A stretch of DNA of 64,000 nt from Bacteroidota bacterium (GTDB taxonomy: Bacteria; Bacteroidota; Bacteroidia; 2-12-FULL-35-15). A model generated the notes under the pieces. It had not been told where the DNA came from. It worked only from the letters and a program-made list of their open reading frames with translations, and did not search any database. A program made the translations under genes and the position numbers. Of this stretch, positions 49,371 through 64,000 are shown in pieces. Location: positions 71,157-135,156 of the forward strand of contig CANFRC010000009.1 of assembly GCA_947449315.1 (NCBI GenBank), read 5' to 3'. Numbering within the stretch: the stretch's first letter is position 1; every line of letters starts with the position of its first letter.

Positions 49371-49523
49371 AATGTACTACAAATATACTATTCCCCGCTG
49401 ATTATTACATCAAAAACAGGTCGAGTTTCGAAATGCATCGATTTGCTAATTTTGGGAATATTTTACTTTTTGTTTTACAATAGCAAATCTTTTTCTACAT
49501 TTGCATTCCTTAAAAAAAGGCTT

Positions 49524-49613
49524 TGGAGAGATGCCTGAGTGGCCGAAAGGAACAGTTTGCTAAACTGTCGTACTGGGAAACCGGTACCGAGGGTTCGAAT
49601 CCCTCTCTCTCCG
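49524..49613 (+). tRNA. tRNA-Ser (anticodon GCT), long variable arm
   Basis: GGAGAGA…TCTCTCC acceptor stem, D-loop AGTGGCCGAA, anticodon stem-loop ACAGT-TTGCTAA-ACTGT, long extra arm, T-arm GGTTCGAATCC. Confidence 0.85.
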
Positions 49614-49628
49614 CTGAAAAATTACAAA

Positions 49629-49668
49629 AGATCTGCTCTGATTATCAGGGCAGATCTTTTTGTTTTTA
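49629..49668 (+). terminator. hairpin plus T-run after tRNA-Ser
   Basis: agatctgctctga-ttat-cagggcagatct followed by tttttgttttt. Confidence 0.4.
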
Positions 49669-49890
49669 GCAATGACTAACCCTTGAATTTATCTCACTAA
49701 TTTTTATTTTGGGGATCAATAGCAATAAATACCTGTGCATTGCTTTCATTGGTATTGTTTGCGATCAAACGTGAATGAGATAAATTATGGTAAATAGTCA
49801 ATAGGAATTATAAACTTTTTTATTAAAATCTTTGCAGAATAAAAAATAATGGTACATTTGCATCCGCATTTATAGTTCTTTATAGTAGTT

Positions 49891-49964
49891 CGGGGCGTAG
49901 CGTAGTTGGTTATCGCGCCTGGTTTGGGACCAGGAGGTCGCAAGTTCGAGTCTTGCCGCCCCGA
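49891..49964 (+). tRNA. tRNA-Pro (anticodon TGG)
   Basis: CGGGGCG…CGCCCCG acceptor stem, anticodon stem-loop CCTGG-TTTGGGA-CCAGG, T-arm GGTCGCAAGTTCGAGTCTTGCC. Confidence 0.85.
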
Positions 49965-50048
49965 CAAAACAAGTGGTTAATGGTTATTTGTTATATTTTA
50001 CTTATAACATATTATCGTTAACCATTTTTGTTAGTAGCCTTTTAAAAT

Positions 50049-50122
50049 GATCCCATAGCTCAGCTGGATAGAGCAACGGTTTTCTAAACCGTAGGCCTTT
50101 GGTTCGAATCCAAATGGGATCA
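50049..50122 (+). tRNA. tRNA-Arg (anticodon TCT)
   Basis: GATCCCA…TGGGATC acceptor stem, D-arm TAGCTCAGCTGGATAGAGCA, anticodon loop TTTCTAA, T-arm GGTTCGAATCC. Confidence 0.85.
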
Positions 50123-50180
50123 CTAAAGCATACTGATAATCAATTAGTTAGCTGTTTGTATTGACAATATTATTGACAAA

Positions 50181-50218
50181 AAAAGGGTTTCTGATTAATT
50201 TCTGAAACCCTTTTTTTG
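50181..50218. terminator. strong bidirectional hairpin terminator downstream of the tRNA cluster
   Basis: aaaaaaagggtttctga-ttaat-ttctgaaaccctttttttg: 11-bp stem flanked by an A7 and a T7 run. Confidence 0.5.
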
Positions 50219-50285
50219 TAATAAAAATAACTGATGAGAATCTATTCTGAGTAATCTAAAAGAAGAAACATAAGTAACATCCAAA

Positions 50286-50398
50286 ATGCTGATAAATCCA
50301 TATTATGTTTATGGTGGTTCAGGTGTTATCCTGATTTTAACAACAGCAGTTATTATTTTGATTTTTAAAAGGAAAAATAAGACCGATGAAGTCGCATA
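50286..50398 (+). CDS. putative 37-aa hydrophobic single-TM peptide (unlisted small ORF)
   Basis: ATG…TAG ORF MLINPYYVYGGSGVILILTTAVIILIFKRKNKTDEVA: hydrophobic core plus basic C-terminus. No RBS can be judged. Speculative. Confidence 0.2.
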
Positions 50399-50651
50399 GA
50401 ATGTTTGTAATCATCAATGCTAATCGCTGATCATCACTTTTCATCGTTTTTAATCGCATTTCAGCGATTAACATCGCTGTTCATCGCTGAGAAGCGCATC
50501 TCATTTCTCAAAAAACTACCCGCTATCGACTCATCATCAATTGAAAAAACTGCTCTTTTTTAGAGTTTTACAGGCTTTATTAAGTTACACAAATCTGTAA
50601 CGTAATAAACATTTATACATTTTACAATACATTGTAAAATGCTGAATTTAG

Positions 50652-50832
50652 TATAAAGAAGCTTTGCGTCATACCAATGTTGCTTTGATAAAAGTGTTGG
50701 AAGGCTTGAACAATAATGTGACTGGCGATTTCTTAGCGATGGATATCCGCACCTCGCTTCATCATCTGGGTGAGAACACCGGAGAAATTTCGAGTGACGA
50801 TCTATTAGCGATTTTTTTTAGTCGATTTTGTA
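50652..50832 (+). pseudogene. mnmE: 3'-terminal fragment (last ~60 codons) of tRNA-modification GTPase gene mnmE (trmE/thdF), truncated by upstream in-frame stops
   Basis: In-frame translation [63 protein letters not shown] matches the conserved MnmE C-terminus, including the terminal FCIGK. Stops (TGA, TAG) lie immediately 5'. No G-domain is present. Confidence 0.7.
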
Positions 50833-51035
50833 TCGGGAAGTAATTTTTTTGTTTTTGGAGCAGTCAATTTTTGTAAAAAAAAATAAGGCTGTCATGAGTT
50901 TGAACTGAAAAAAGCAGCAGTAAACGGGGGGCAACATGTTTATTTTATTGAAAAAGAGTTTCCAATTAAAAAATCATTGGGATGGCGGGAAAATATATGA
51001 AACATAAAAAATGAAAAAATCATAAAATGTTTACA

Positions 51036-51043
51036 TAAATTTG
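51036..51043 (+). promoter_or_regulatory. TAnnTTTG (-7) promoter element (TAAATTTG) about 30 nt upstream of the island's cysteine desulfurase gene
   Basis: Exact motif in a ~230-nt very AT-rich leader. Confidence 0.3.
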
Positions 51044-51072
51044 TATCTTACAAGAGATAAAAGCAAAAACTA

Positions 51073-52227
51073 GTGAATATATCTAAAGATTTAATTTATC
51101 TTGATAATAATTCGACAACAAAAGTTGATGATAGGGTTATTGATGCAATGATTCCAATCATGACAGAATGCTATGGAAATCCCTCTAGCTCTCACCCATT
51201 TGGAAAAGAAATTCATCAATTAATTATTGAAGCCAGAAAAAACGTTTCAAATCTAATTAGTTGCGAACCTAAAGAAATAATATTCACATCCGGAGCAACT
51301 GAAGCTATTAACTTAGCTTTAAAAGGAATTGCCCAATCCTCTCATTTCAATAGAAAAAAAATAGTAACTTTCTCAACGGAACACAAAGCCGTTTTAGATA
51401 CTTGTAAAATCCTTGAAAACCAAGGATTTGAAATTGTAATCCTTCCTGTAAATAATGATGGTACCGTTGACATAGCTTTATTATCCAATGTTGTCGATCA
51501 AGAAACACTTCTTGTTGCTGCAATGTTCGTAAATAACGAAACTGGAGTTATTCATGATATTAAAAAAATGGCTGAAATTACCCATAATATGGGAGCAATT
51601 TTCTTTTGTGATGGCACACAGGCTGTAGGAAAAATTAAAGTAGACATAAATGAACTCGATGTTGATATGCTATGCTTTTCAGGTCACAAGTTTCACGGAC
51701 CAAAAGGAATTGGAGCATTATATGTAAACAATTCTATAAAAAATAAAATTCAAGCACAACAAACTGGTGGTGGACAGGAATCCGGATTAAGAAGTGGAAC
51801 TTCCAATACTGGAGGAATTGTTGGTTTAGGTGAAGCATGCAAAATAGCTGTAATAGAAATAAAAGAAACTGAAGTCAAAGTCGCAAAGCTAAGAGACCAA
51901 TTAGAGTCTGAACTTTTACAAATTCCAGGGACATTTATTAATGGTAATATAAAAAATCGAATTTATAACACTACTAACATTTGCTTCCCTAAAAATGACG
52001 CAAATGTAATAATAGGAAGATTAAAGAAAATTTCTGTAAGTAATGGTTCTGCATGTACATCTTTAATTGTTGAACCATCACATGTTTTATCTGCGATGGG
52101 TTTAGATAATGATTTGGCCTTTGCCTCCCTTCGCTTCTCATTAAGTAGATACAACAATATAAATGAAGTAAAAAAAGTTGTTAAAGAATTAAGTAATATT
52201 CTGATTCCAAATTTAATTATAAATTAA
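51073..52227 (+). CDS. cysteine desulfurase (class V aminotransferase, IscS/NifS/DndA/SspA-like); GTG start
   Basis: LIYLDNNSTTKVDDRV (IscS N-terminus), PLP-lysine motif FSGHKFHGPKGIGALYV, catalytic Cys loop SNGSACTS. 384 aa. Confidence 0.85.
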   Translation: MNISKDLIYLDNNSTTKVDDRVIDAMIPIMTECYGNPSSSHPFGKEIHQLIIEARKNVSNLISCEPKEIIFTSGATEAINLALKGIAQSSHFNRKKIVTFSTEHKAVLDTCKILENQGFEIVILPVNNDGTVDIALLSNVVDQETLLVAAMFVNNETGVIHDIKKMAEITHNMGAIFFCDGTQAVGKIKVDINELDVDMLCFSGHKFHGPKGIGALYVNNSIKNKIQAQQTGGGQESGLRSGTSNTGGIVGLGEACKIAVIEIKETEVKVAKLRDQLESELLQIPGTFINGNIKNRIYNTTNICFPKNDANVIIGRLKKISVSNGSACTSLIVEPSHVLSAMGLDNDLAFASLRFSLSRYNNINEVKKVVKELSNILIPNLIIN

Positions 52228-52231
52228 AAAA

Positions 52232-52447
52232 ATGGAACAGACTCTAGCAAATACCACAAATTGGCTAAAAAGTAAAGAGGTTGAAAGTAAATTGAAAGTT
52301 TATAATAGTCATTTAATGCATTTAAGACTTGAAAGTAAATTAAGTTATACCAAAAACGGGAATTCATTTTTCTACAAAAAAAGTGATGTTAAGAAAATTA
52401 AAGCTATTTTTAAAAACTCAATAATTTCAAAGAGTAGAAATAAATAG
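52232..52447 (+). CDS. small DNA-binding protein, HTH_17 (excisionase/AlpA/MerR-like) candidate
   Basis: 71 aa. …LKSKEVESKLKVYNSHLMHLRLESKLSYTKNGNSFFYKKSDVKKI fits the helix-turn-helix … wing … F..DV pattern of HTH_17. It starts 4 nt after the desulfurase stop. Confidence 0.35.
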   Translation: MEQTLANTTNWLKSKEVESKLKVYNSHLMHLRLESKLSYTKNGNSFFYKKSDVKKIKAIFKNSIISKSRNK

Positions 52448-52534
52448 AGAAAATGAATTATAAAATTGAGCCTCAAAAAAGGAAAGTTGATCTTTTTAAG
52501 GAGCTTAACAGAGTTTTAGAAGAAATTGAAAATT

Positions 52535-54115
52535 ATGATAAATGATATTAAAGAATTAATTTGTGATTTACCTGATGGAAAAAAAAGAAATTATTTAGGT
52601 CAACTTTTCGTACAGTCGCTGAGTAATTATTACTCCAATTTTGGAGTTGATGAAGAAATTGATTTAGATGAACTTCTTGTTAGAAACATCAAAGAAATTA
52701 TTATTGAGGATGAATTATTGAAAGACTTAAAATTATTCGTTTCAAAAAAATTAGAAGAACTTTTTAATCTAAATTCTAATGATATAAGTGAACTTAGAAT
52801 TAAAGATCTTCGAGCAAAACTGATTTCACATTTTGAAATAAAATTTGAAATCGATCAAACAGCTGATAGAATATATGAGAATAATTTAATCTGTAAATTT
52901 CCACTTCATGATTTTCAAGATCGAATTAGGAGAAAAGTCATAAATTTAATTTTCGATAATCAGAAACGATTTTTGATTCATATGCCGACTGGTTCTGGTA
53001 AAACAAGAACCGCAGCAGAGGTTATTTTAGATTTTATTCGATTATCTTCAAGCAAATCCTTGTTAAATGATAAAATAAAAATTCTATGGATAGCGCAATC
53101 CAGCGAACTTTGTTATCAAGCTTATGAAACAGTAAAACTTATAATAGAAAATAAAGGAACTCAAAATATAAGTTTGGCAAATTATTATGGTAATCAAGAG
53201 TTGCCAAATGATATAGAAAACAAATCAGCTGTAATTTTCTGCGGTATTCAAAAATTACTTTTACATTATACAGATGATATTTGGAGAAATATAAAAAATA
53301 ATACTTATTTAGTTATCGTTGATGAAGCGCATAGATCGGTAGCAAATCAATGGGTACAAGCATTAGATTATTTTGTGTCAGATCAAAGCGTATATTTATT
53401 AGGATTAACTGCGACACCTGGACTGGGTACAGTTAATGAAGATAGAACATTTTTGCTATCTACTTATTACCAAAGTAATAAGATAACAATAACGGATTCA
53501 AATTATGAAGAAATACCAAATCCAATTAATGAGTTAGTAAAATTAAAATTTTTGGCTCAAATAAAACGAATTGATATTGATTCGAAAGTTGTTATTGAAA
53601 ATGGTGTAGACACCTCTGACGAAAATGAAATTAAATTTTCAAATAATACTTTAGATGAATTGACTGCGAATCAACAACGAAATGCTTCAATTATTAATAT
53701 AATAAAAGAAAATCATTTAAAGAAGAAAAAAATGCTGGTTTTCACTTGTGGGTTAGAGCATAATCGTATTTTAAAATCCATATTAACAGATTTGAATATA
53801 GTTTCAGAAACTATTGATCAAAGTACTACAAATAGAAATTCTATAATTGATAGATTTAAAGATAGCAATAGTGGTCTCGATATTTTACTAAATTTTGGCA
53901 TTTTAACTACTGGATTTGACGCTCCTAAAACCGATGTATGTATCATTGCTAGACCTATTTCTTCAATTGTAATGTATTCACAAATGGTTGGAAGAATATT
54001 GCGAGGGCCAAAAAATAATGGAAACGATGAAAATACACTCTACACTATAAAAGACAACCTTGGTCACGGTGACTATGATAATCTATTTAATTCATTTAAT
54101 AATTTTTATAAATAA
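52535..54115 (+). CDS. superfamily-2 DEAD/DEAH-type helicase (restriction Res-subunit-like) with ~130-aa N-terminal domain of unknown function. The ORF is open from TTG 52526.
   Basis: Motif I HMPTGSGKTRTAA, motif II LVIVDEAHRS, motif III LGLTATPG, motif VI YSQMVGRILRG. Confidence 0.8.
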   Translation: MINDIKELICDLPDGKKRNYLGQLFVQSLSNYYSNFGVDEEIDLDELLVRNIKEIIIEDELLKDLKLFVSKKLEELFNLNSNDISELRIKDLRAKLISHFEIKFEIDQTADRIYENNLICKFPLHDFQDRIRRKVINLIFDNQKRFLIHMPTGSGKTRTAAEVILDFIRLSSSKSLLNDKIKILWIAQSSELCYQAYETVKLIIENKGTQNISLANYYGNQELPNDIENKSAVIFCGIQKLLLHYTDDIWRNIKNNTYLVIVDEAHRSVANQWVQALDYFVSDQSVYLLGLTATPGLGTVNEDRTFLLSTYYQSNKITITDSNYEEIPNPINELVKLKFLAQIKRIDIDSKVVIENGVDTSDENEIKFSNNTLDELTANQQRNASIINIIKENHLKKKKMLVFTCGLEHNRILKSILTDLNIVSETIDQSTTNRNSIIDRFKDSNSGLDILLNFGILTTGFDAPKTDVCIIARPISSIVMYSQMVGRILRGPKNNGNDENTLYTIKDNLGHGDYDNLFNSFNNFYK

Positions 54116-54121
54116 TCAACT

Positions 54122-55918
54122 ATGAGTAATAAAAGACCACTAATGGGTACAGATAATATCCTTGGGTTACAAGATAACGGATATAAAAGTACTGTTTCTG
54201 CTATTTCTGAAATAATTGATAATAGTATTCAAGCACATGCAACAAATGTTGACATTGTTATTATTAGAAATACTACTCGAGAATCGGATGAAATTGACGA
54301 AATTATGATAATTGATGACGGAGATGGAATGGATCAAAATATTTTTGACAAGGCTCTTCAAATGAGCTCAGGAAGTAGATCAAAAGCAAAATCAGGCTTA
54401 GGTAAATATGGCCAAGGCTTACCTAATTCATCTATTTCTCAAACAAAAAGAGTCGAAGTTTATACCATGCAAAAGGGGAAAATACTTTATAATCATATTG
54501 ATTTAAATGAAATTTACGAAAGTCAACAACCCTATTTACCAGATACCGAAAAAAGAAATGAAATTGATATTCCTATTTTCAAATCTAAAAAATTAAAAGC
54601 ACCTGAAACTGGTACAATAGTAAGATGGGTTAATCCTAATAAAGTAAAACCTAAAACTGCTAGAACATTAGCAACACATATTGAACAAATAGCTGGTCGA
54701 ACATTCAGATATTTTATTAATGGCTTTAAAGACAATGATGGAAAGATTTATAAATGTAATATAAACATTTTAGTCTTTGATTTTAATGGTAAAAATTATG
54801 AACCTGATAATTTTATTACAAAGAAAAATATTCTACCATTTGACCCTATGTTTCTTATGCCAGCAACGCAAATGAATAAATTGTTTCCAGAGAGCAGTCA
54901 TCCAACTAGTAGTATATTTGATGAAAAAATCAAGAAAGAATTTAAAGTTATATACAATAATGAAAAAGTAAAAACAATTGTTGAAATTAAATTATCCTAT
55001 TGCAATAAAAAAGAACGTGATAGATATGGACGAAATGCCGGTGGTGAACCTTTTGGAAAAAAGTACTTGAATAGAAATTTGATTGGTACATCTGGATACA
55101 ATAATATTTCAATAATTCGCGCCGGAAGAGAAATTGATTACGGAAGTTTTGGTTTTATTTTAGATGCTTCTGAATCAACAAATAGATGGTGGTCTGCTGA
55201 AATTTTAGTTGAGCCAGTTATAGATTCTATTATTGGTATCGATAATAAAAAACAACAAGCTTCACAAATTCAATTTGTCGACAATCAGACATCTGAGGAT
55301 TATGACCATCATGAAATTATTCGATGGATTTCTACATTTCTTACGCAAAACATTAAAAGTGTTAAGACAATTATCGAATTGCAAAATGCGTCCTCTAATG
55401 GTACAACTGCTAAGGGGAAAGGAAAAGGACCAAAACTTCCTCCCGGGGGAGGAACTGAGCCAGGAAACTCAGGAAATCCAGGCGCTAATCCTGACGATGA
55501 TGAAATGAAAAAAGTTAAGAAGGAATTATTTGAATGGATAAAAGAAAGATACCCAAAACTGAAAGATGATGAAATATGGGAAATCGTAGATTACGCATTC
55601 AGTATAAAGGATTGTCATATTTTTATTAAATCAGATTTAGGAGATACACAGCTATACAGTTATAAGGTTTTTGGCACTAAAGTTTTGATAGAAATTAATT
55701 ATACTCATAGTTTTTATAAAAGATTTATTCAAGGGTTTGAAGAAGACCCAAGTCAAGAAAAATCATTACGTTCAATCAGATTATTGATAGGTGCCATGGT
55801 TAATGCAGAAATTGTGAATGGTACTGATGAAAAAGAAATACTTAAAGATAGACGGAATATTAAAAATAGGATGTCAGAATGTTTAGAGGATTATATCGAG
55901 GATTTATACGCAAGTTAA
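54122..55918 (+). CDS. GHKL-superfamily ATPase (HATPase_c; prokaryotic MORC / MutL-like) with long C-terminal extension
   Basis: Bergerat-fold boxes: N box EIIDNSIQAHA, G1 box IIDDGDGMD, G2 box GKYGQGL. 598 aa. It starts 7 nt after the helicase stop. Confidence 0.8.
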   Translation: MSNKRPLMGTDNILGLQDNGYKSTVSAISEIIDNSIQAHATNVDIVIIRNTTRESDEIDEIMIIDDGDGMDQNIFDKALQMSSGSRSKAKSGLGKYGQGLPNSSISQTKRVEVYTMQKGKILYNHIDLNEIYESQQPYLPDTEKRNEIDIPIFKSKKLKAPETGTIVRWVNPNKVKPKTARTLATHIEQIAGRTFRYFINGFKDNDGKIYKCNINILVFDFNGKNYEPDNFITKKNILPFDPMFLMPATQMNKLFPESSHPTSSIFDEKIKKEFKVIYNNEKVKTIVEIKLSYCNKKERDRYGRNAGGEPFGKKYLNRNLIGTSGYNNISIIRAGREIDYGSFGFILDASESTNRWWSAEILVEPVIDSIIGIDNKKQQASQIQFVDNQTSEDYDHHEIIRWISTFLTQNIKSVKTIIELQNASSNGTTAKGKGKGPKLPPGGGTEPGNSGNPGANPDDDEMKKVKKELFEWIKERYPKLKDDEIWEIVDYAFSIKDCHIFIKSDLGDTQLYSYKVFGTKVLIEINYTHSFYKRFIQGFEEDPSQEKSLRSIRLLIGAMVNAEIVNGTDEKEILKDRRNIKNRMSECLEDYIEDLYAS

Positions 55919-56220
55919 ATTAACTAATTAATATGATTTTCAAATCTGATTTGGCTTTTGATATTAAAAAAAAGTAAGAGCAGTAATTATTTAACTAACT
56001 TAAAAATCTTGCAGTAGAATATTATAATTTTATTTTGTAAAAATTATTTGGATTAATTCACGAATAAAAAATGTAATACTTATTAGATAACTGCTTTAAT
56101 TTATTAAAAACTGTATTTTCAGCAATTTCATCTTTTATTTCCTTTAGGAAACACTAGAGATAAATCATTTCTCACTATATATAGTGTAAAGTTATTATTA
56201 TTCACTAATGTTTTACAATT

Positions 56221-57183
56221 ATGCTATATAGAAGTGGAGAAAATTTAGAACATGGCGCAATTAATTTCGTAAATAATTGCGAAACAGTAACATTATATTC
56301 AGCATATCTTAAATTGGATGAATTAAAGAAAATAAATGAACATAAAAAAATAAAGCAAATTATTGTCAGATGGGAAATTGAAGATCTTTGTAGAAAAATT
56401 TCAGATATCGAACTATTTCTATACTGCAAAGAAAATAGTATTGTATTATACCGAAATACTCGCATTCACTTAAAAGCCTTTTGGGATAATAAATCAGATG
56501 TGTTTTTTGGTTCTGCAAATGTTACCAACAAAGGCCTTGGCGAAAACGGGAACTTCAATTTTGAATTAAATGGCGCATTAAAGGGAATAAGTTTTGCTGA
56601 CCAAACTTATTTCAATAAATTAATATTAGACAGCGAATATGTTACAGACGACCTTTATAATAAGTTATTGGACTTAATTGAAAGTGTTGTTTTGCCAACA
56701 TTTGATTTCCCAAAACTTCCAACTCCTCCACCAACAGTAGAATATTTTTTAATTAATCAGCTTCCAATGACAACGAGTCCTGAATTACTTTTTGAAATCT
56801 ATAGTGGACAGATGAAAAATGAAATAGAAATGAATTGTGCAGCACATGACTTAGAGTTGTATCGCATACCAAAAGGACTAACTAAAACTGTTTTTTTTGA
56901 CCAATTAAAACAAACATTCAACAATCATCCTTTTATATTGGAATTTAAAGTTACAATTAAAAATTCTGTCGATGAATTAAACCGAACTGATAGGAATGGA
57001 AGTATGACTTTTGGATCTGTTAAACGATGGTTTCAAGATAAAACTACTACTGTTCCCACACCCCGCTCATTTGAATTGAATGATTATGTAAATATATTAT
57101 ACGATTGGATCTGCCATTTCGATAATTGTTACAGCCATTCCATTCCAGGAGGGTACTCTCAGGTAATTAAGTATATTTGCTAA
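56221..57183 (+). CDS. phospholipase D-family nuclease, single HKD motif (Nuc/BfiI-like)
   Basis: HLKAFWDNKSDVFFGSANVTNKG matches HxK(x)3-4D(x)6GSxN. Only one copy is present, implying dimeric use as in Nuc. The C-terminal ~150 aa are unassigned. Confidence 0.65.
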   Translation: MLYRSGENLEHGAINFVNNCETVTLYSAYLKLDELKKINEHKKIKQIIVRWEIEDLCRKISDIELFLYCKENSIVLYRNTRIHLKAFWDNKSDVFFGSANVTNKGLGENGNFNFELNGALKGISFADQTYFNKLILDSEYVTDDLYNKLLDLIESVVLPTFDFPKLPTPPPTVEYFLINQLPMTTSPELLFEIYSGQMKNEIEMNCAAHDLELYRIPKGLTKTVFFDQLKQTFNNHPFILEFKVTIKNSVDELNRTDRNGSMTFGSVKRWFQDKTTTVPTPRSFELNDYVNILYDWICHFDNCYSHSIPGGYSQVIKYIC

Positions 57184-57262
57184 TGAAAATTTAGTATAAT
57201 AAATCAAAATGAACCTAATATAGTTACAAAATTGCGATTTACAAATATTTAAAAACATCAAC

Positions 57263-58837
57263 ATGAAAATTGAAGCTTTAAAAAATCAAATTGTTTCAGG
57301 AGGTAGAACATATCCGATATTCATTGCTTTTATAGAAGCGGAGTTAGTATTAAAATACTCTGTTGTTCCAAATTTTAGTAATGATGATCATGAAGAGGCA
57401 ATTGCGGTGAATATAAAAAGTAAACCTGTAAAAAAATGGCAGCGCCCTCTAATTCAATCGAAAGTTGATGAACTGATTAAAACGTTTAATAATACTGGGG
57501 AATTCATGCCAAATCCTGTTCTGTTATCAGAAAATCCACTGCGAACAAGTAAATCACAAGAAAAAATTAAGGCCTACCCTAAAATTATCGGAGGGCAAAC
57601 TAGTTCTGTTTGGGAAATAAGTTTACCTGAAGAAAAAGAGGTCTTGTGGATTATTGACGGACAGCACAGAATTACAGGTTTAGGAGATGTTGATTGTAAA
57701 CAAAATTCAAATATTGTTCCGGTAGTGCTTTTATTAAACCCTGATACTGTTTTCTATACCCCCCCTGACTTTGCAAAAATATTTGCGCAAGTTTCAACGA
57801 CAGCTTCAGAATTAAGACCACTTCATAAAGAATGGTTGCAGTATTCTTTTGAACTGGCAAAATACGAAGGGAAGCAGTGGCAGGATTCAATGTCTACTGT
57901 GGTTGAGCTATGTGCCCACACAGAATTTATAGACCGAGGCACCACCTACCCTAATCCATATTGGGACAAAATTGTTTTTAACGATGCCAATTTAGAGAAT
58001 AATATGCGTCTAAATTGTCAAGTATTCGCAGAAATAATTCACTCAGAATATTATAATAGAAAACCAGAATACAATCATTTTGCTCCGACTGAACTAGCTG
58101 TTCTTGTTGAAAAAGCGTTCTTTCAGCTTCGTCACACAATACCAAATCCTGACCTTTCGGTGTTTTTTGGAAGCGAATCTACGATTCGTCACGTTGTTTC
58201 AATTAAGGCATATATCAGAGGCATATTAACCTATATCCTAAAATATTGCGACCCTCAAGATTCAAGCAAAACACCTGATTTGAATGCATGGAAAAATGTA
58301 TATGAAACTTTATATTTTAACAAAACTGATTTTAATTGGGCTTTACATTCTATGACTGGTGAAGCGTGGTATTCAAAGTCGGAAATTTTGGCGAATGTCG
58401 TATTTAAAGAAGCTTTTAGATCTTTGACAATCCCTGATGGTGCCGTAGATTTAACTCATTGTATTTGTCTTGGAAATAATCAATTTATAGAACTGGAATT
58501 AACAAACAATGTAGGAGTTTCTACCACAAAAAAAATCACGAGTAACACAACAGTTATAAATGACCCGGGGAATATTTCAAATATAAAAATTGTAAACAAA
58601 TCATTTAATTGCGAATTAATCAGTATCGTTGACCAAAAAACTACCCATAATTATCCTCAAAAGTTCAATATGGATTATGCGCGAAAAAATAAAGGAAAAG
58701 GAATAGATGTTCCTTTTACAAAGCCTGCAACAAAAAGTAAACCCGCATACGATACAACAAAAAACTTCAATCTTGAAGTCAAAATAACACGCTATGGCGG
58801 GGGGACTGATACAATGGTAATTAAATTTCACATTTAA
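57263..58837 (+). CDS. DGQHR-domain protein (DndB-like family), 524 aa
   Basis: Diagnostic motif VLWIIDGQHRITGL. Upstream QRPLIQSKVDEL is the DndB-type region. It is ~150 aa longer than canonical DndB, with an extra C-terminal region. Confidence 0.8.
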   Translation: MKIEALKNQIVSGGRTYPIFIAFIEAELVLKYSVVPNFSNDDHEEAIAVNIKSKPVKKWQRPLIQSKVDELIKTFNNTGEFMPNPVLLSENPLRTSKSQEKIKAYPKIIGGQTSSVWEISLPEEKEVLWIIDGQHRITGLGDVDCKQNSNIVPVVLLLNPDTVFYTPPDFAKIFAQVSTTASELRPLHKEWLQYSFELAKYEGKQWQDSMSTVVELCAHTEFIDRGTTYPNPYWDKIVFNDANLENNMRLNCQVFAEIIHSEYYNRKPEYNHFAPTELAVLVEKAFFQLRHTIPNPDLSVFFGSESTIRHVVSIKAYIRGILTYILKYCDPQDSSKTPDLNAWKNVYETLYFNKTDFNWALHSMTGEAWYSKSEILANVVFKEAFRSLTIPDGAVDLTHCICLGNNQFIELELTNNVGVSTTKKITSNTTVINDPGNISNIKIVNKSFNCELISIVDQKTTHNYPQKFNMDYARKNKGKGIDVPFTKPATKSKPAYDTTKNFNLEVKITRYGGGTDTMVIKFHI

Positions 58838-58838
58838 A

Positions 58839-59381
58839 ATGATTTTTACTGAATTAAATAATTTCAGAATCGAAATTTCTAAAAAATACGTAAATCATCT
58901 TTCTGTGTCATTTATTGTTGGATGGGAAAAATGTAGAAAATCATTAGAAACCGAAAAAGATACATATGAATTAATTTTAAAAAAATTAGCACTACTGCAT
59001 CCCGAACACTACTACTTAATTTTAAAAACTGAAACCAGTAGGATTAATAGCAAAATTGAACTAATTCAAGGAAATAGATCCTTTCCGCAGATTGATGACA
59101 CCGAAAAATGTCAATCTGAAGAACTTTGGGGGTATATTTGTCCTTTTACAATAGAAAACAAGGTTCAAGATCATGAATTTCCATACTCCTTAGGAGGCCC
59201 TACAAATAAGGCATTTAATAGAAGAATACTTTGCAGATGGCATAATATGATAAAAGCTAACGACATCCATAATTATCCCTGGGAAAAACTATTTAATCAA
59301 TATGAATATTATATAAAAACCAACAGGGTGCACTGGGTTGATGAACAATTAAATAAAATCATAAAAGAATTCAATTTGTAA
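58839..59381 (+). CDS. HNH endonuclease
   Basis: CPFTIENKVQDHEFPYSLGGPTNKAFNRRILCRWHNMIK: Cys…D-H…N…C..H-N pattern of the HNH beta-beta-alpha-Me finger. The start is 2 nt after the DGQHR gene stop, so the two are translationally coupled. Confidence 0.6.
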   Translation: MIFTELNNFRIEISKKYVNHLSVSFIVGWEKCRKSLETEKDTYELILKKLALLHPEHYYLILKTETSRINSKIELIQGNRSFPQIDDTEKCQSEELWGYICPFTIENKVQDHEFPYSLGGPTNKAFNRRILCRWHNMIKANDIHNYPWEKLFNQYEYYIKTNRVHWVDEQLNKIIKEFNL

Positions 59382-59651
59382 ATAAGTAGAAATTAAAAAA
59401 TTCTACAAAGAACTCAACAATTTTTCTAGTTCATTTTTTAACTCTTTTTCCTTTTTTCTTATTGAAACATCTATTTCAATAGGGAAAGTATGGCTCATGT
59501 ACTTTTCAATGTCTCCAATTAAGCTACCTTGAATACCATTTCTCATCTTTTTTAAAAATTGAATTCAATCTTCTAAATTATTAAAAATAATCGAAGAGGA
59601 ATGTCTTACAATCTCAAAAAAAATTTAAAAACAGGATCAAAATCGGATTTT

Positions 59652-59908
59652 TCATCCACTAAAATATTTTTTTCCAAGCGCAGCAGCAAAGCCAACTTCA
59701 AGAGTTAAACCATAACCTGAAGGATTATCCTTTTGCAATCCCAAAGAGTATATTCAATTGGAGAAAGTAATTCGTGCTCTCTTGGATTAAAAAAAACAAC
59801 ATTACTTTTACCGACATTTTTAATAACTAGAGATTGCCAATCTATGATATTCATCCCACCTGAAAGAAATATTTTAGAGTCCATCATTTTGTGTATTAAA
59901 TAAAACAA
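59652..59908 (-). pseudogene. nucleoside 2-deoxyribosyltransferase-like small gene interrupted by a +1 frameshift near 59740-59755
   Basis: Frame A (59908-59705) encodes MMDSKIFLSGGMNIIDWQ…NVVFFNPREHE (N-terminal KI(Y/F)L(A/S)G(P/G) motif). Frame B (59753-59652) encodes …SGYGLTLEVGFAAALGKKYFSG*, the D/G..(T)..E.G.A.A.GK C-terminal signature of PF05014-like proteins. The frames overlap and differ by one nucleotide. Confidence 0.35.
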
Positions 59909-60996
59909 CTAGCACAACCCGCATCATCGTCTTCTAGTATATCAATTAGAAGAGATGATTTTTTCTGTGCATTCTTTTCAGTTTTTTTTATGTAATCTTC
60001 TTTTATCTGTTGAATTCTTTCAGGCTTAATTAAATCACCTAAGGCCTCCTCACTCCATGAGTATCCAGTTTTTTCATATTCCAAAGCCTTGTTAAAAAGA
60101 TCAGGGTGCTGTTCGTAAAGCCAAACCCACTCTATTTTCTGCTGGTAAAAACAAAAATAGCATCCTGAGCGGCTTCGTGCATACTCCCCCATTTTACCGT
60201 TTACTTCAAATTTAATCTTTTTATAATACTCAGGCACTCCAACTCCACTTTCTTCTAGTATTTTAAAAATGTCACTTTTAATTAAGATATCCTCATTATC
60301 CAGCAAAGCAAAATCATTTTCCATTGCAAGAGGGTACTCTGTAGTTTTCAGAAATTGAAATACTAAATGATTAAAACCTTTGATGTCGGTATCTAAAATA
60401 GCATTCAATTTATGTTTTAAGGTAAATGAAGTGTCTATTTTCTTAGAAATTAATGCTTCAAACTTTTCTTTATTTCTGCCCCAGTATACATTTGAAAACA
60501 TCGGCATAACTTTATCTAAATTTTGATTGGATAAAACCTTAGCAATAACATCTTCACTCCAAATGTTTTTTCGAAAAGGGAAAATCGATTGAATATTTTT
60601 TTTGGTAGAAATATAACCTTCTCTTTCCTCATCACCTCTGATGCCAACGTAAGAAACTACAGGATCATTTCCAACGTATTTCTCAAAGGGGTCAAGCTTT
60701 AAGGTCTTTGTGCACCATCTAGCAGTTGCAGAAGGCAAATAACCACCATGCAACGTCAAAAAATGATCAAATGGATCAGCTTCCGAAGTCTCTCTTGTTG
60801 CCAAAAGTAAATTAATTTTGATTCCTAAATAAACCTCCAAATTTTTTATCAGTTGGTAAGTTTCGTCAAGCTCCTTTCCAGTATCACATGAATAAAACTC
60901 CAAATCAATGCTTGGATATTTTGTTTTCATATAAATAGCTAAAGCAGCACTATCTTTTCCACCTGAAATCCCTAAAACGTGTCTTGTCTTTTTCAT
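59896..60996 (-). CDS. PAPS-reductase-family PP-loop ATP pyrophosphatase (DndC/SspD/BrxP-like), 366 aa
   Basis: N-terminal PP-loop HVLGISGGKDSAA. C-terminal Cys cluster (RSGCYFCFYQ … DAGCASCFI) as in DndC-type proteins. The start ATG overlaps the upstream gene's stop (TA[A]TG). Confidence 0.8.
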   Translation of the reverse strand: MKKTRHVLGISGGKDSAALAIYMKTKYPSIDLEFYSCDTGKELDETYQLIKNLEVYLGIKINLLLATRETSEADPFDHFLTLHGGYLPSATARWCTKTLKLDPFEKYVGNDPVVSYVGIRGDEEREGYISTKKNIQSIFPFRKNIWSEDVIAKVLSNQNLDKVMPMFSNVYWGRNKEKFEALISKKIDTSFTLKHKLNAILDTDIKGFNHLVFQFLKTTEYPLAMENDFALLDNEDILIKSDIFKILEESGVGVPEYYKKIKFEVNGKMGEYARSRSGCYFCFYQQKIEWVWLYEQHPDLFNKALEYEKTGYSWSEEALGDLIKPERIQQIKEDYIKKTEKNAQKKSSLLIDILEDDDAGCASCFI

Positions 60997-63900
60997 TATT
61001 TCAATAAATCCTTCAATAGATTAACCAATGCAGCAATATTCAATGTTTTATCTGAAGAAAGTTTCTTTTTTAATTGTTCCTTAATTTCATTTATCTCCAA
61101 CTCTTTCTTCTTAGGTATTTTTACGATTTTAGGTGCAATTCCACTAAAAAACGAGTCAATTTTAACGGCTATAACTTCTTCCTTATCTTCATCAATATCA
61201 GTTTTAGAAATATTAGTCAACCCATCAAGTTGTATGATACAGTTTTTAAATTTTTCATACAAACTAATCTCGTCCTCATCTTTAAAGGTATCTAACGTTT
61301 TACCAACAGCAATTTGAGCAAGTGAGTTCAACCAAATCTTCTTATCGTCAATTTTCGAATTTATTCGTTGAACAAATACTTTCTGATCAGCTAATAGCAA
61401 ATGTTGCTTTAACTTTTTAAATCTCTGCTGCAGCTTTTCTTTGTAATCTTCAAAATCTAATTTATCATATACAATTTCATTACAAATAAATTCTTCAAAA
61501 CGCTCAACTAATAAATCATAACATGATCTTAACTCACGAATTGTGCTCTGCAAAGTATTTGTGTATTTCTGTAACTTCTTTTTATCCTTTTGTAGTTCTA
61601 AAACCGTAAAGTCTAAAGCTGCAGGAAATGCATTAAAAAATGTATCTTCTGGGTCTTTAGAGGAAGCTATAGAAGTCCTGATTTTAATAGCTTCTTTTGA
61701 AAGACGATTGGTTTGTTTTGAATATTCAGGCAATTGCTTGTAAAAAGTAAGAAATGGCTTTATTGTTTCAATAAATGACTTATTATCAATCTTTACCCCA
61801 GTAGCTTGATTCAAAAAAGTTCTATAACTATTGAATATATCTAATTTGACACCTTCAATATCGAATGCTTTTATTTTAAATTTCGCAGGTAACTTAGAAA
61901 CTAATTCTAAATTTTCATCAGAAAGATTAGGAACGTACCCTGTTTCTCCAAAAAGCGCAAAATCGTCACGTTTAATAAACAGGAAAGTTGGAATCCAAAA
62001 ATCAATTAAGCCTTGTTTGAGCTTAAATGGCCTTTTGCTTAATATATCGACAAGCTCATCAATAGACCTAGGTTCAATTTTCGTACTTGCAATAAACTTT
62101 TCTGATGTGTTCCAAAGATCCAAAAATGAAGAAGAATTTTCAACACTTGGTACATCAGTACTTCCATCTCTAATTGGAGAGATACCATTTTCTTTCATTA
62201 GAGAAAGAAAAATAGTTTTCTCTGGCGGGAATTTATCGTTTTCAAAACCAAGATTCTCCTTATCCCAATTATTTGCTAAAGCTTTAAAATAATTTTTCTT
62301 AGCCGAATGAATAGATGGAGAAATCCTATGTTTATTCATCAATTCATTAACAAATTCTGGAGTAGAACTATAAACCGAATCGCAAATTTTAGATAAAAAT
62401 TTATTAAATAATTTTTTGTCTGTTATTGTTTTCACTTCCCCGTCCTTCCAAAACCATCTAACGTCAAGATTGTTACTGAATAGATTAGCAACAATGTATT
62501 CATTTAATATTTTTTTCTGATGTGAAAGAATACTCTCTAACTCACGTTTAGCAACTTTATCATCGACATTTTCTTCAATTACTTTTTGAATTTTTTCAAT
62601 TTCGAAAAGCAAATCTTTAATTTCATTTGCATTTCTGTAGAAACCATAAATAACAGCATCTTGTTGATTAATAGCTATTTTTTCGAGTTCATTTAATTTA
62701 AGCTTTGAATTAAATATTAGATTTATATAACCATCTATTTCACCCGTAGGAATTTTTTCTATGGGATACTCTGAAATAACAAATTCGAAAAATCGAGGAG
62801 TACCCTTTTTATAGGAATGCTGCTTTGCCAATATTGGAGCAAAAGAAAAATATTTATTTAACAAAGTAGTTATATCAGTTACCTCAGATACTTTATTTGC
62901 AGCTTCAATAAGAGCTGTTTGTATATCCAAATCTGTACCTTCAAACAAAATATATCTTTGTGAATGGGCTCTATATAGTATAATTTTTTTCTGCTCAAGC
63001 TTTTGAATTAGTTCTCTACCGTTCTTTATTCCACAAGAAGTGATTAAATATTCATCTAGAAAAACAAGGTCTAATTTTGACCCACTAGCCGAAAAAATGT
63101 TAAGCAACCCTATTGTCTTAATAATTTTTGAATACTCAACTATAGAATCATCAAATGCTCTTTCAACTTCTTCAATAGCTGTTCTTATAGAAGACCATGC
63201 AGAAAAATCAGAATTATATTTTGAAGTTAAGTACGAATAAAAATTAAAAATTAAATAATCGTATACACAAGATAAATTATAAAAAGGATTGTCTTTTTTA
63301 TTAAACTTAGCTAAACCAGTATTATCTGTAGATTCTAGAAAAGAAAACAATGACCTTTCATTTTGCCCATATCTTTGAAGTGATAGGGTCAGTACATTAG
63401 CAGAAAGTATATCCAGAGGATATAATTTACTAGCAATTTGTTGTAGAAAATCCTTGTTAAAACTAAATGCTTTTGTATTTATATTAAGCTTTAATGACCT
63501 TTCTATAATAGCCTTTCCAGCTATTGCTTCAACCGTTTCACCAATATGTTCAGAAGCCAAGAACAGCAATTGTTCCACTGGCTCATTAAAAGTAATTTCC
63601 TTAAATCGTCCCTTAACTTTCGTCCACTCTTGCTTCTGTTGTCCTTGAAGTGAAAACGCATACGATTCAAAACTTTGATGAACGGTAGTAATAAAAACGA
63701 TATTATACTTTGGGTCATTGCAAAATTCAGCCAATTGTTGAATAAAATACAATTCATCTTCTGGACTATTTTTTGAAGCATACTCTAAAAATTTGCCAAA
63801 TTCATCAATAAGAAGGAAAAGGATTTTATTTCCCTTTCCCAATGAGTGATATCGATTGAAGATTTCAGAAAAAATATTTTCTTGTTTATTTTTGTTTGAT

Positions 63901-64000
63901 GTTATCTTAAGAAGATCCGCAAAAGTTTGTATAACACTGTTATATTCCCCAATCACCTTAAGGAAATCAACTTTAGGATTATCTATAAAATTAACATTGA
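60996..64000 (-). CDS. large (>1000 aa) ATPase-like protein, N-terminus lies beyond the window end. BrxC/PglY (DUF499) or SspC-like is a candidate family.
   Basis: The minus-strand frame is open from 60996 to the window edge with no stop; the listed GTG at 63956 is not the true start. A Walker-B-like GNKILFLLIDEFGKFLEY lies near the visible N-terminus. The remainder is a long, mostly alpha-helical K/E/L/I-rich body. No P-loop is visible in the window; it is presumably upstream. Confidence 0.55.
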   Translation of the reverse strand, partial: NVNFIDNPKVDFLKVIGEYNSVIQTFADLLKITSNKNKQENIFSEIFNRYHSLGKGNKILFLLIDEFGKFLEYASKNSPEDELYFIQQLAEFCNDPKYNIVFITTVHQSFESYAFSLQGQQKQEWTKVKGRFKEITFNEPVEQLLFLASEHIGETVEAIAGKAIIERSLKLNINTKAFSFNKDFLQQIASKLYPLDILSANVLTLSLQRYGQNERSLFSFLESTDNTGLAKFNKKDNPFYNLSCVYDYLIFNFYSYLTSKYNSDFSAWSSIRTAIEEVERAFDDSIVEYSKIIKTIGLLNIFSASGSKLDLVFLDEYLITSCGIKNGRELIQKLEQKKIILYRAHSQRYILFEGTDLDIQTALIEAANKVSEVTDITTLLNKYFSFAPILAKQHSYKKGTPRFFEFVISEYPIEKIPTGEIDGYINLIFNSKLKLNELEKIAINQQDAVIYGFYRNANEIKDLLFEIEKIQKVIEENVDDKVAKRELESILSHQKKILNEYIVANLFSNNLDVRWFWKDGEVKTITDKKLFNKFLSKICDSVYSSTPEFVNELMNKHRISPSIHSAKKNYFKALANNWDKENLGFENDKFPPEKTIFLSLMKENGISPIRDGSTDVPSVENSSSFLDLWNTSEKFIASTKIEPRSIDELVDILSKRPFKLKQGLIDFWIPTFLFIKRDDFALFGETGYVPNLSDENLELVSKLPAKFKIKAFDIEGVKLDIFNSYRTFLNQATGVKIDNKSFIETIKPFLTFYKQLPEYSKQTNRLSKEAIKIRTSIASSKDPEDTFFNAFPAALDFTVLELQKDKKKLQKYTNTLQSTIRELRSCYDLLVERFEEFICNEIVYDKLDFEDYKEKLQQRFKKLKQHLLLADQKVFVQRINSKIDDKKIWLNSLAQIAVGKTLDTFKDEDEISLYEKFKNCIIQLDGLTNISKTDIDEDKEEVIAVKIDSFFSGIAPKIVKIPKKKELEINEIKEQLKKKLSSDKTLNIAALVNLLKDLLK

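Follow-up and report, generated by a model that had tools for sequence, protein, structure and literature searches.

Which DNA-modification system is encoded by a gene for a giant ATPase and a gene for a PP-loop protein that share a single base at their junction, and what is the role of the genes that face them? The question is raised by one end of a stretch of 64,000 nucleotides of a Bacteroidota genome (contig CANFRC010000009.1 of assembly GCA_947449315.1, positions 71,157 to 135,156 of the forward strand; in the following, the window), where the two genes lie on the minus strand and a run of genes headed by a cysteine desulfurase gene, sspA, lies on the plus strand. The original prediction had called the pair BrxP-BrxC-like or SspD-SspC-like and had leaned towards type 4 of the bacteriophage exclusion (BREX) systems. 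Profile searches and a comparison with related loci indicate that the two genes are very probably sspC and sspD of an Ssp DNA-phosphorothioation module on a Bacteroidota chromosome. The pair would thus add one more case to a known and well-populated family that existing defence-system profiles already recognise, and the one fresh aspect of the locus is the neighbouring set of uncharacterised nuclease, helicase and ATPase genes.

Assignment of the gene pair

The visible part of the large protein matched the PADLOC model of SspC (PDLC02776) with 1443 bits, covering profile positions 65–1038 of 1039, and this clade of SspC proteins already has a dedicated PADLOC sub-model. The PADLOC model of BrxC/PglY reached 222.7 bits and was exceeded by ten SspC sub-models (254 to 1443 bits). 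For the PP-loop protein, the comparison of SspD, BrxP and DndC profiles that had been suggested at the outset placed SspD far ahead (298.8 bits, versus 24.8 bits for BrxP and 13–20 bits for DndC); in Pfam, the protein matched PAPS_reduct (E 3.7e-8). At least 7996 homologues of SspD were found, and the best 120 listed are 70–94% identical. Of the double designation in the original prediction, the Ssp half is therefore retained and the BREX half, which had been preferred, is given up. The description of the ATPase as DUF499-type is not borne out either, because a Pfam scan of its visible 1000 amino acids did not contain DUF499.

Several points weigh against the assignment. The name Ssp rests on PADLOC profiles and synteny, and NCBIfam contains no Ssp models; searches with SspC and SspD against the sequences of PDB chains, both with single sequences and with profiles, yielded no meaningful match; and an AlphaFold2 model of SspD, built with 28 close homologues, had a mean predicted local distance difference test score of 63, which is too poor for a fold search. 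Furthermore, the intactness of the sspBCD operon is inferred from related loci, as sspB and the part of sspC that would encode the Walker A motif are located outside the window. For some SspD proteins an alpha+beta insert and an Fe-S-like region have been reported (PMC12839542).

The most obvious alternative is a BREX type 4 system, in which the pair would be BrxC and BrxP and would make phosphorothioate with the help of PglZ and BrxL, whose genes would lie close beyond the edge of the window. The resemblance on which this idea was based is real, because BrxC is homologous to SspC, and BrxP, which is likewise homologous to SspD, has been described as a fusion of SspD with the DUF4007 protein SspB (PMC12914056, PMC12839542); such a fusion, of about 780 amino acids, is frequent in BrxP. 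Both systems therefore have a homologous ATPase and a phosphoadenosine phosphosulfate (PAPS)-reductase domain, and they share the same chemistry, that is, DNA phosphorothioation; moreover, the SspC homologues of the relatives have a faint precomputed match to PF19557 (BrxC-PglY_N). Nevertheless, the Ssp models scored six to twelve times higher than the BREX models. SspD has 366 amino acids and no DUF4007 fusion, the BrxP model was matched only at positions 136–265 of 779, which represent its PAPS-reductase part, and in the relatives DUF4007 is encoded by a separate gene in front of sspC. In a survey of BREX type 4, PglZ was present in all 457 taxa and BrxL in 96% of them (PMC12839542). The original prediction had already noted that neither is visible in the window, and indeed PADLOC detected no PglZ, BrxL or other BREX component in the 33 other open reading frames (ORFs) of at least 100 amino acids (E <= 1e-5), nor PglZ or BrxL in the eight proteins that neighbour the pair; neither of the two is listed among the flanking genes of the closest relatives, as far as these flanks were retrieved. 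Taken together, the profile scores, the stand-alone SspD, the separate DUF4007 gene and the lack of a PglZ or BrxL match in the window make a BREX type 4 system very improbable, and it was rejected. The order with the ATPase gene first is the normal sspB-sspC-sspD order of every related locus.

A second alternative is that the PP-loop protein is DndC of a Dnd system or CysH of sulfate assimilation, encoded beside an unrelated ATPase. The PAPS_reduct domain is shared with these proteins, and weak matches to DndC and CysH do exist. Yet they are far below the NCBIfam family cutoffs (11.8 versus 290 bits for DndC TIGR03183, and 14.9 versus 154 bits for CysH), PADLOC detected neither DndD nor DndE among the cassette proteins and the 33 other ORFs, and the partner ATPase is an SspC along its full length. 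The ECGLH motif of CysH, named earlier as a feature that would speak for sulfate assimilation, is not present in the SspD sequence, which has five invariant cysteines instead. This alternative, too, was rejected; its probability is close to nil.

The sspC-sspD junction

When one genome was scanned for each species, 35 related loci were obtained, nearly all of them titled Bacteroidota, with SspC proteins 52–70% identical to that of the window; closer loci were added by look-ups with SspD homologues. The homologues from genomes and metagenomes together span 35–94% identity. Individual loci of this collection are referred to by L numbers below.

As had been predicted, the start codon of the PP-loop gene overlaps the stop codon of the upstream ATPase gene. 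Read on the minus strand, the junction has the sequence TAATG (Table 1), in which a single base is common to both codons. Among 54 related loci, most have an overlap of 1–4 nucleotides between these two codons, as ATGA or TAATG, and the junctions that do not overlap are mostly within about 8 nucleotides, one of them being an alignment artefact. Because the overlap recurs in most of these loci, translational coupling of the two genes is conserved and not accidental, which agrees with the co-expression of the pair that had been deduced from the window.

The gene for the large protein does leave the window, as stated in the original prediction: its reading frame (63998–60999) comprises 1000 sense codons and is not interrupted by an in-frame stop before the edge. 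A figure of 986 amino acids for the same ORF is the length from the first GTG only. The motif LLIDEFGKF at the visible residues 52–60, which had been read as Walker-B-like, can be identified as the Walker B motif, and in all 50 loci with a readable N-terminal end of SspC a Walker B motif of the form hhhhDEFG is accompanied by the Walker A motif G[TSN]YGTGKS. The sspD gene is complete. Its product starts with MKKTRHVLGISGGKDSAAL and has the PP-loop motif SGGKDS at residues 11–16, and a family alignment revealed the invariant cysteines C95, C279/C282 and C361/C364. All 54 loci encode an SspD with SGGKDS, and all but one (53/54) an SspD with the two C-terminal CxxC motifs.

The N-terminus of SspC and the predicted sspB gene

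Complete SspC homologues have 1072–1075 amino acids. The nearest complete copy, that of L044 (1073 amino acids), is 87% identical to SspC of the window, and the respective SspD proteins are 93% identical. According to the alignment with L044, the edge of the window corresponds to about residue 74 of SspC, and thus about 73 N-terminal residues are encoded beyond position 64000. In L044 the Walker A motif (GTYGTGKSS) is located at residues 49–57. Because Walker A is present in each of the 50 readable homologues, including this one, the missing N-terminus of the window's SspC almost certainly carries the P-loop, which is where the original prediction had expected it. An ATPase lacking a nucleoside triphosphatase fold would have spoken against that prediction, and this objection does not apply.

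In the relatives for which the upstream flank was examined, the start of sspC is overlapped by an ORF of 291–320 amino acids (375 amino acids in the divergent L035). This ORF was identified as SspB by PADLOC in L004 (417.8 bits), and it has a precomputed Pfam DUF4007 match in L036–L044 and L049. The sspB gene is therefore expected just past position 64000 in this genome as well, and sspB, sspC and sspD are predicted to be a single operon in which the stop codon of each gene overlaps the start codon of the next. Partners of the pair had been sought just outside the window; this would apply to sspB, but not to sspA and the candidate effector cassette (52232–59381), which are both inside.

In L036 (4638–5672) and L040 (3918–4952), two relatives that are about 80% identical in SspD, a protein of 344 amino acids with HTH_3 and Peptidase_M78 domains is encoded divergently from sspB and is followed by several small ORFs. 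This protein might regulate the island or belong to a mobile element, and a similar gene may be present beyond position 64000 in this genome.

Proposed reaction

SspA has been described as a cysteine desulfurase, SspB as a nickase, SspC as an ATPase and SspD as an ATP pyrophosphatase (PMC12914056, PMC8092258, PMC10853773). If the module of the window works as in the published studies on Vibrio and Escherichia coli Ssp systems, SspA would take sulfur from cysteine, and SspD would pass it on to the DNA backbone with the aid of ATP and its conserved cysteines. SspB, the DNA-binding nickase with the DUF4007 domain, would select and open the target together with the ATPase SspC. The product would be a sequence-specific phosphorothioate on one strand, at a short motif and at a fraction of the sites, which would mark the cell's own DNA as self for defence against phages. 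The locus is presumed to make phosphorothioate, and the system to be intact and active.

Genes facing sspD

The plus strand encodes a run of seven genes, convergent with sspD, that is headed by sspA (Table 1). The cassette faces sspBCD in the window, and it is co-directional with these genes in many relatives. Repeats that would explain the orientation of the sspA cassette were not found, as the inverted and direct repeats detected were AT-rich chance matches only, and a scan for promoters and terminators around the convergent gene ends gave no result above the expectation from shuffled sequences.

Table 1. Features of the Ssp locus, in the order of their positions in the window
Feature	Coordinates	Strand	Length	Assignment	Evidence or remark
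sspA	51073..52227	+	384 aa	class-V pyridoxal-phosphate cysteine desulfurase, predicted sulfur donor	PADLOC SspA 494.6 bits, DndA 489.6 bits
small ORF	52232..52447	+	71 aa		directly after sspA; conserved in relatives
helicase gene	52526..54115	+	529 aa	superfamily 2 (SF2) helicase, ResIII/DEAD + Helicase_C	Pfam ResIII 1.7e-28, Helicase_C 1.2e-9
GHKL gene	54122..55918	+	598 aa	GHKL-type ATPase	HATPase_c_3 at residues 25-143, E 7.4e-24
HKD gene	56221..57183	+	320 aa	single-HKD (phospholipase-D-family) nuclease candidate	family alignment
DGQHR gene	57263..58837	+	524 aa	candidate phosphorothioate sensor or NTPase	
HNH-like gene	58839..59381	+	180 aa	HNH-like (His-Me finger) protein, stand-alone, candidate nuclease partner	starts 2 nt past the DGQHR stop
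deoxyribosyltransferase remnant	59547..59884	-		nucleoside 2-deoxyribosyltransferase-like, frameshifted	just downstream of sspD
sspD	59896..60996	-	366 aa	PP-loop PAPS-reductase-family ATP pyrophosphatase	complete
TAATG junction	60994..60998	-	5 nt	sspC stop TAA 60998-60996 + sspD start ATG 60996-60994	
sspC	60996..64000	-	3' 93% of gene (1000 of ~1073 codons)	large ATPase of the Ssp phosphorothioation module	

SspA contains the Pfam domain Aminotran_5 (E 4.9e-84), and a homologue that is 42–70% identical is present in most related loci with enough flanking sequence; an Ssp system can dispense with its own SspA where IscS substitutes for it. The small ORF directly after sspA is 62% (L036) and 48% (L040) identical to a gene of 63 amino acids that also follows sspA, and counterparts are found in L002, L003, L025, L070, L075, L077, L080 and L082.

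The next three genes encode the helicase, the GHKL ATPase and the HKD protein. The helicase has weak matches to PADLOC PbeA (69 bits) and to NCBIfam dnd_restrict_1 (36 bits), and its core aligned weakly with the PbeA protein of L015, which itself reaches 1119 bits with the PADLOC model. The likeness of the GHKL ATPase to MzaB and MutL is confined to the N-terminus, and its homologues adjoin helicase and HKD genes in related loci. The HKD protein has weak matches to Pfam PLDc_2 and to PADLOC DrmC/ZacB. In its family R81 and H83-L84-K85 are invariant, as are, 14 residues further on, A99-N100, which are preceded by S or T, and it was classified as a single-HKD nuclease candidate because of this invariant HxK...(S/T)AN motif.

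The two remaining genes form a pair. The DGQHR protein was named after the motif at residues 132–136 of its N-terminal domain, which has a ParB/sulfiredoxin fold and is followed by a helical middle part and a C-terminal beta-sandwich; a search against PDB chains with the single sequence and with a profile found no meaningful match. The small protein had no match in Pfam, NCBIfam, PADLOC or the PDB sequences, and it was classified as HNH-like because its family alignment has the invariant pattern DH...GG...N...HN (D111-H112, G119-G120, N127, C132, H135-N136). A search of 1.84 billion representatives retrieved 190 cluster representatives at E <= 0.001; the best 150 are stand-alone proteins of 85–226 amino acids, and none of these 150 has a fused partner.

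Between the convergent gene ends lies a remnant of a nucleoside 2-deoxyribosyltransferase-like gene, with a weak match to Pfam Nuc_deoxyri_tr2. In tblastn searches with the proteins of L036 and L005, residues 1–47 and 61–125 were encoded in different frames. An intact gene of 128–130 amino acids is located downstream of sspD in L005, L006, L013, L014, L024, L031 and L036, and hence the interval between sspD and sspA is a recurrent place of deoxyribosyltransferase-like genes.

Linkage of the cassette to phosphorothioation genes

On a narrow balance of the evidence, we regard the convergent cassette as a restriction or sensing arm that would read the phosphorothioate mark in place of SspE or SspFGH. 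The helicase, the GHKL ATPase and the HKD protein together would form an ATP-driven nuclease acting on unmarked DNA, and the DGQHR-HNH pair would comprise a phosphorothioate-modulated nucleoside triphosphatase (NTPase) and a nickase.

Some observations speak against an effector role. The PADLOC models of SspE, SspF, SspG and SspH had no match in the eight neighbouring proteins at E <= 0.01, the DGQHR-HNH pair is not present in any of the 33 loci that were retrieved with the HKD protein (see below), and defence islands often stack independent systems. The sspABCD genes might form a solitary module that marks DNA for epigenetic or redox purposes, and the genes between sspA and sspD might be independent defence systems that share one island with it. 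It is known that 83.9% of sspBCD loci contain neither SspE nor SspFGH, and the existence of bona fide orphan systems has been suggested (PMC8092258). The lack of a match between the cassette proteins of the window and the known Ssp effectors is in line with such a solitary module, and so is the varied content of the sspD-sspA interval, which can consist of PbeA and an ABC ATPase, of NsnA-like and kinase-like genes, of a GmrSD_N protein or of nothing at all. It should be noted that, because 83.9% of the sspBCD loci lack both SspE and SspFGH (PMC8092258), these effectors do not define the modification module.

A test that is independent of the ssp genes was performed by scanning metagenome contigs with the alignment of the HKD protein, and 33 loci were obtained. 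At least one of sspA, sspB, sspC and sspD was present in 22 of them. In these loci the HKD gene usually has the helicase and GHKL ATPase genes as neighbours, and the arrangement is either convergent, as in the window, or co-directional. The other 11 are on contigs of at most 5.1 kb or end on the side on which ssp genes would be expected. Since 22 of the 33 loci carry ssp genes and the remainder are short or cut in this way, the helicase-GHKL-HKD set looks like a dedicated companion of Ssp. Thus, even with a search anchored on the HKD gene, the set lies beside ssp genes wherever the flank is long enough, and in the window and in L049 sspA heads the transcription unit of the cassette; both observations speak against independent systems.

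The contexts of the DGQHR pair point in the same direction. Nine were sampled, and in eight of them the DGQHR gene is followed at once by a gene of 158–186 amino acids, with the pair tail-to-tail with a phosphorothioation operon; the ninth is a contig end. The operon is sspBCD in the window, in L044 and in L049/L050, and it is dndBCDE in Psychromonas, in Alteromonas and in three further loci, and thus the pair follows two unrelated types of phosphorothioation operon, from Bacteroidota to Gammaproteobacteria. By tblastn, the small gene after DGQHR-520 is a homologue of the HNH-like gene in L044–L050, and in L084 and L085 a gene of 158–163 amino acids occupies the HNH-like position after DGQHR. 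In L044 the order is HKD-DGQHR-HNH, running towards sspD-sspC-sspB, and in L049/L050 it is sspA-605aa-helicase-GHKL-[NERD helicase]-HKD-DGQHR-176aa, again towards sspD-sspC-sspB. The absence of the pair from all 33 HKD-anchored loci indicates that it is an optional add-on. In view of both linkages, the solitary module with unrelated neighbours appears less likely, and the interpretation of the cassette as a reader of the mark is preferred.

It is proposed, as a tentative suggestion, that the cassette contains two undescribed phosphorothioate-reading modules for Ssp systems that lack SspE and SspFGH: the helicase-GHKL-HKD set, which would correspond to a disassembled PbeA with a different motor, and the DGQHR-HNH pair, which would be a split counterpart of SspE/DndI. 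If this is true, the DGQHR-HNH pair would read the phosphorothioate mark itself and not a particular modification enzyme, and some of the sspBCD loci reported as orphan (84%) would be explained by the two modules. Wang et al. (PMC8092258) left open what, if anything, restricts DNA in these 84% of loci without SspE or SspFGH, and the locus described here and its relatives offer two candidates that can be cloned. Neither an Ssp-linked helicase-GHKL-HKD set nor a split ParB-like/HNH pair is described in the literature that was searched, the coverage of which excludes most subscription journals.

Variation among the related loci

The DGQHR and HNH-like genes differ from their surroundings in their degree of conservation. 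Between the window (57263–59381) and L044 (1121–3261) they are 53–54% identical, compared with 86–93% for the flanking HKD, sspD and sspC genes. The low identity suggests fast evolution or replacement by a diverged copy.

In two dnd neighbourhoods the DGQHR pair is preceded by a gene for a protein with a ScoMcrA sulfur-binding domain. In L045 (7460–9859, Psychromonas marina) the domain stands alone and the gene follows that of a GHKL ATPase, and in L084 (8994–9866, Alteromonas stellipolaris) it is fused to HNH. A phosphorothioate-binding ScoMcrA domain beside the pair fits a phosphorothioate-reading role.

A further variant was observed in L042 (11117–13456) and L043 (6452–8791), where a GmrSD_N (DUF262) protein of 779 amino acids is encoded directly after sspD, in the canonical position of SspE. 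SspD of these loci is 94% identical to that of the window, and at a greater distance from sspD these loci contain genes for a helicase and a GHKL ATPase and an HKD gene that is 86% identical, interrupted by the gene of a NERD helicase. L042/L043 and the window thus have near-identical modification modules with different reader genes. The swapping of modules in the interval between sspA and sspD represents a natural experiment in exchanging the reader arm of one modification system.

Comparison with characterised systems

The locus has a close counterpart in the SspABCD-SspE systems of Vibrio cyclitrophicus FF75 and E. coli 3234/A (Xiong et al. 2020, as presented in PMC8092258, PMC12914056 and PMC9646914), with which it shares sspA, sspC and sspD in the window, the sspB gene upstream in the relatives, the sspB-sspC-sspD order, the PP-loop of SspD and the Walker A and B motifs of SspC. 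Differences are that SspE is a fusion of DUF262 with DUF1524/HNH, whereas the window has a separate DGQHR protein of 524 amino acids and an HNH-like protein of 180 amino acids, and that sspA is on the opposite strand and heads the cassette. In addition, the proteins of the Bacteroidota clade are 35–94% identical and have their own PADLOC sub-model.

The SspBCD-SspFGH system of Vibrio anguillarum FF-93 (PMC8092258) also has a three-gene module beside sspBCD, one gene of which encodes an ATP-binding motif, and by analogy both three-gene modules would act on unmodified DNA. SspFGH, however, has no recognisable domains except for a Walker A motif and an FtsK-like C-terminus (PMC8092258), whereas the module of the window consists of a helicase, a GHKL ATPase and an HKD protein.

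PbeA is a fusion of an HKD nuclease with an SF2 helicase that works together with a large ATPase encoded beside phosphorothioation genes (PMC10853773). The PbeABCD or CxC-ABC-ATPase system (PMC6459918, re-annotated in PMC10853773) combines the same three activities as the set of the window, and a PbeA set takes the place of the cassette in two relatives. There, in L036 and L040, genes for a PbeA homologue of 736 amino acids, an ABC ATPase of 716 amino acids and a protein of 173 amino acids come after sspA and the small ORF. In the window, by contrast, the HKD protein and the helicase are separate, the ATPase is of the GHKL and not of the ABC type, and no DndE-like protein was detected. The HKD protein of the window had no similarity to the N-terminal HKD part of PbeA in a BLASTP comparison. 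Because the helicase likeness is marginal and an HKD likeness is lacking, a "split PbeA" should be understood as an analogy and not as a demonstrated homology.

SspE and DndI are the two characterised phosphorothioate sensors, and both are fusions of a ParB-like DUF262 NTPase with HNH (PMC11662687). The DGQHR-HNH pair resembles these nickases (PMC11662687, PMC9646914) in that a ParB-superfamily domain with a D-G-Q-x-R motif and an HNH protein are encoded beside a phosphorothioation operon. In contrast to them, the two parts are encoded by separate genes, the DGQHR protein has an extra C-terminal beta-sandwich, and its motif is DGQHR, as in DndB, in place of the DGQQR of DndI and SspE. In Pfam and PADLOC, neither the DGQHR protein nor the HNH-like protein matched DUF262, GmrSD_N, DUF1524, SspE or DndI at the sequence level. 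Because it consists of two genes, because these matches are lacking, and because no fused homologue was found among the best 150, the pair is regarded as an analogue of SspE/DndI and not as a member of their family, as judged by sequence comparison.

The border of the island and the remainder of the window

The Ssp island starts less than 1 kb to the right of three tRNA genes in a row, tRNA-Ser(gct), tRNA-Pro(tgg) and tRNA-Arg(tct) (49525–50123, plus strand), which were the sole matches in an Rfam scan of positions 49000–64000. They are followed by a 28-nucleotide inverted repeat (50167–50228) that resembles a terminator hairpin, and across the island the G+C content drops from about 0.34 to 0.25–0.31. 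Further to the right, a stop-terminated frame (50667–50843, plus strand) represents about the last 55 codons of a gene end; its C-terminus is one which we take to be characteristic of the tRNA-modification GTPase MnmE. An intact mnmE gene is not present in the window. The remnant may have arisen by duplication of the end of the gene when an element integrated, and it may thus mark where the Ssp island is bordered on the left. A degenerate 10-nucleotide tandem repeat (50423–50488; ATCGCTTTTC; 6.6 copies, 66% matches) is located between the tRNA genes and the mnmE remnant, in a stretch that is free of genes.

In the remainder of the window (positions 1–49000), PADLOC matched mad3 to two ORFs (best E 2.5e-78) and mad8 to three ORFs (best E 1.9e-29). 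Among the products of this housekeeping region are BatD, UvrA, Rho and a protein that has a sorting tail for type-IX secretion. The matches are probably chance hits to paralogues and not a defence system, and they may come from MoxR-type or vWA-type genes of a Bat operon.

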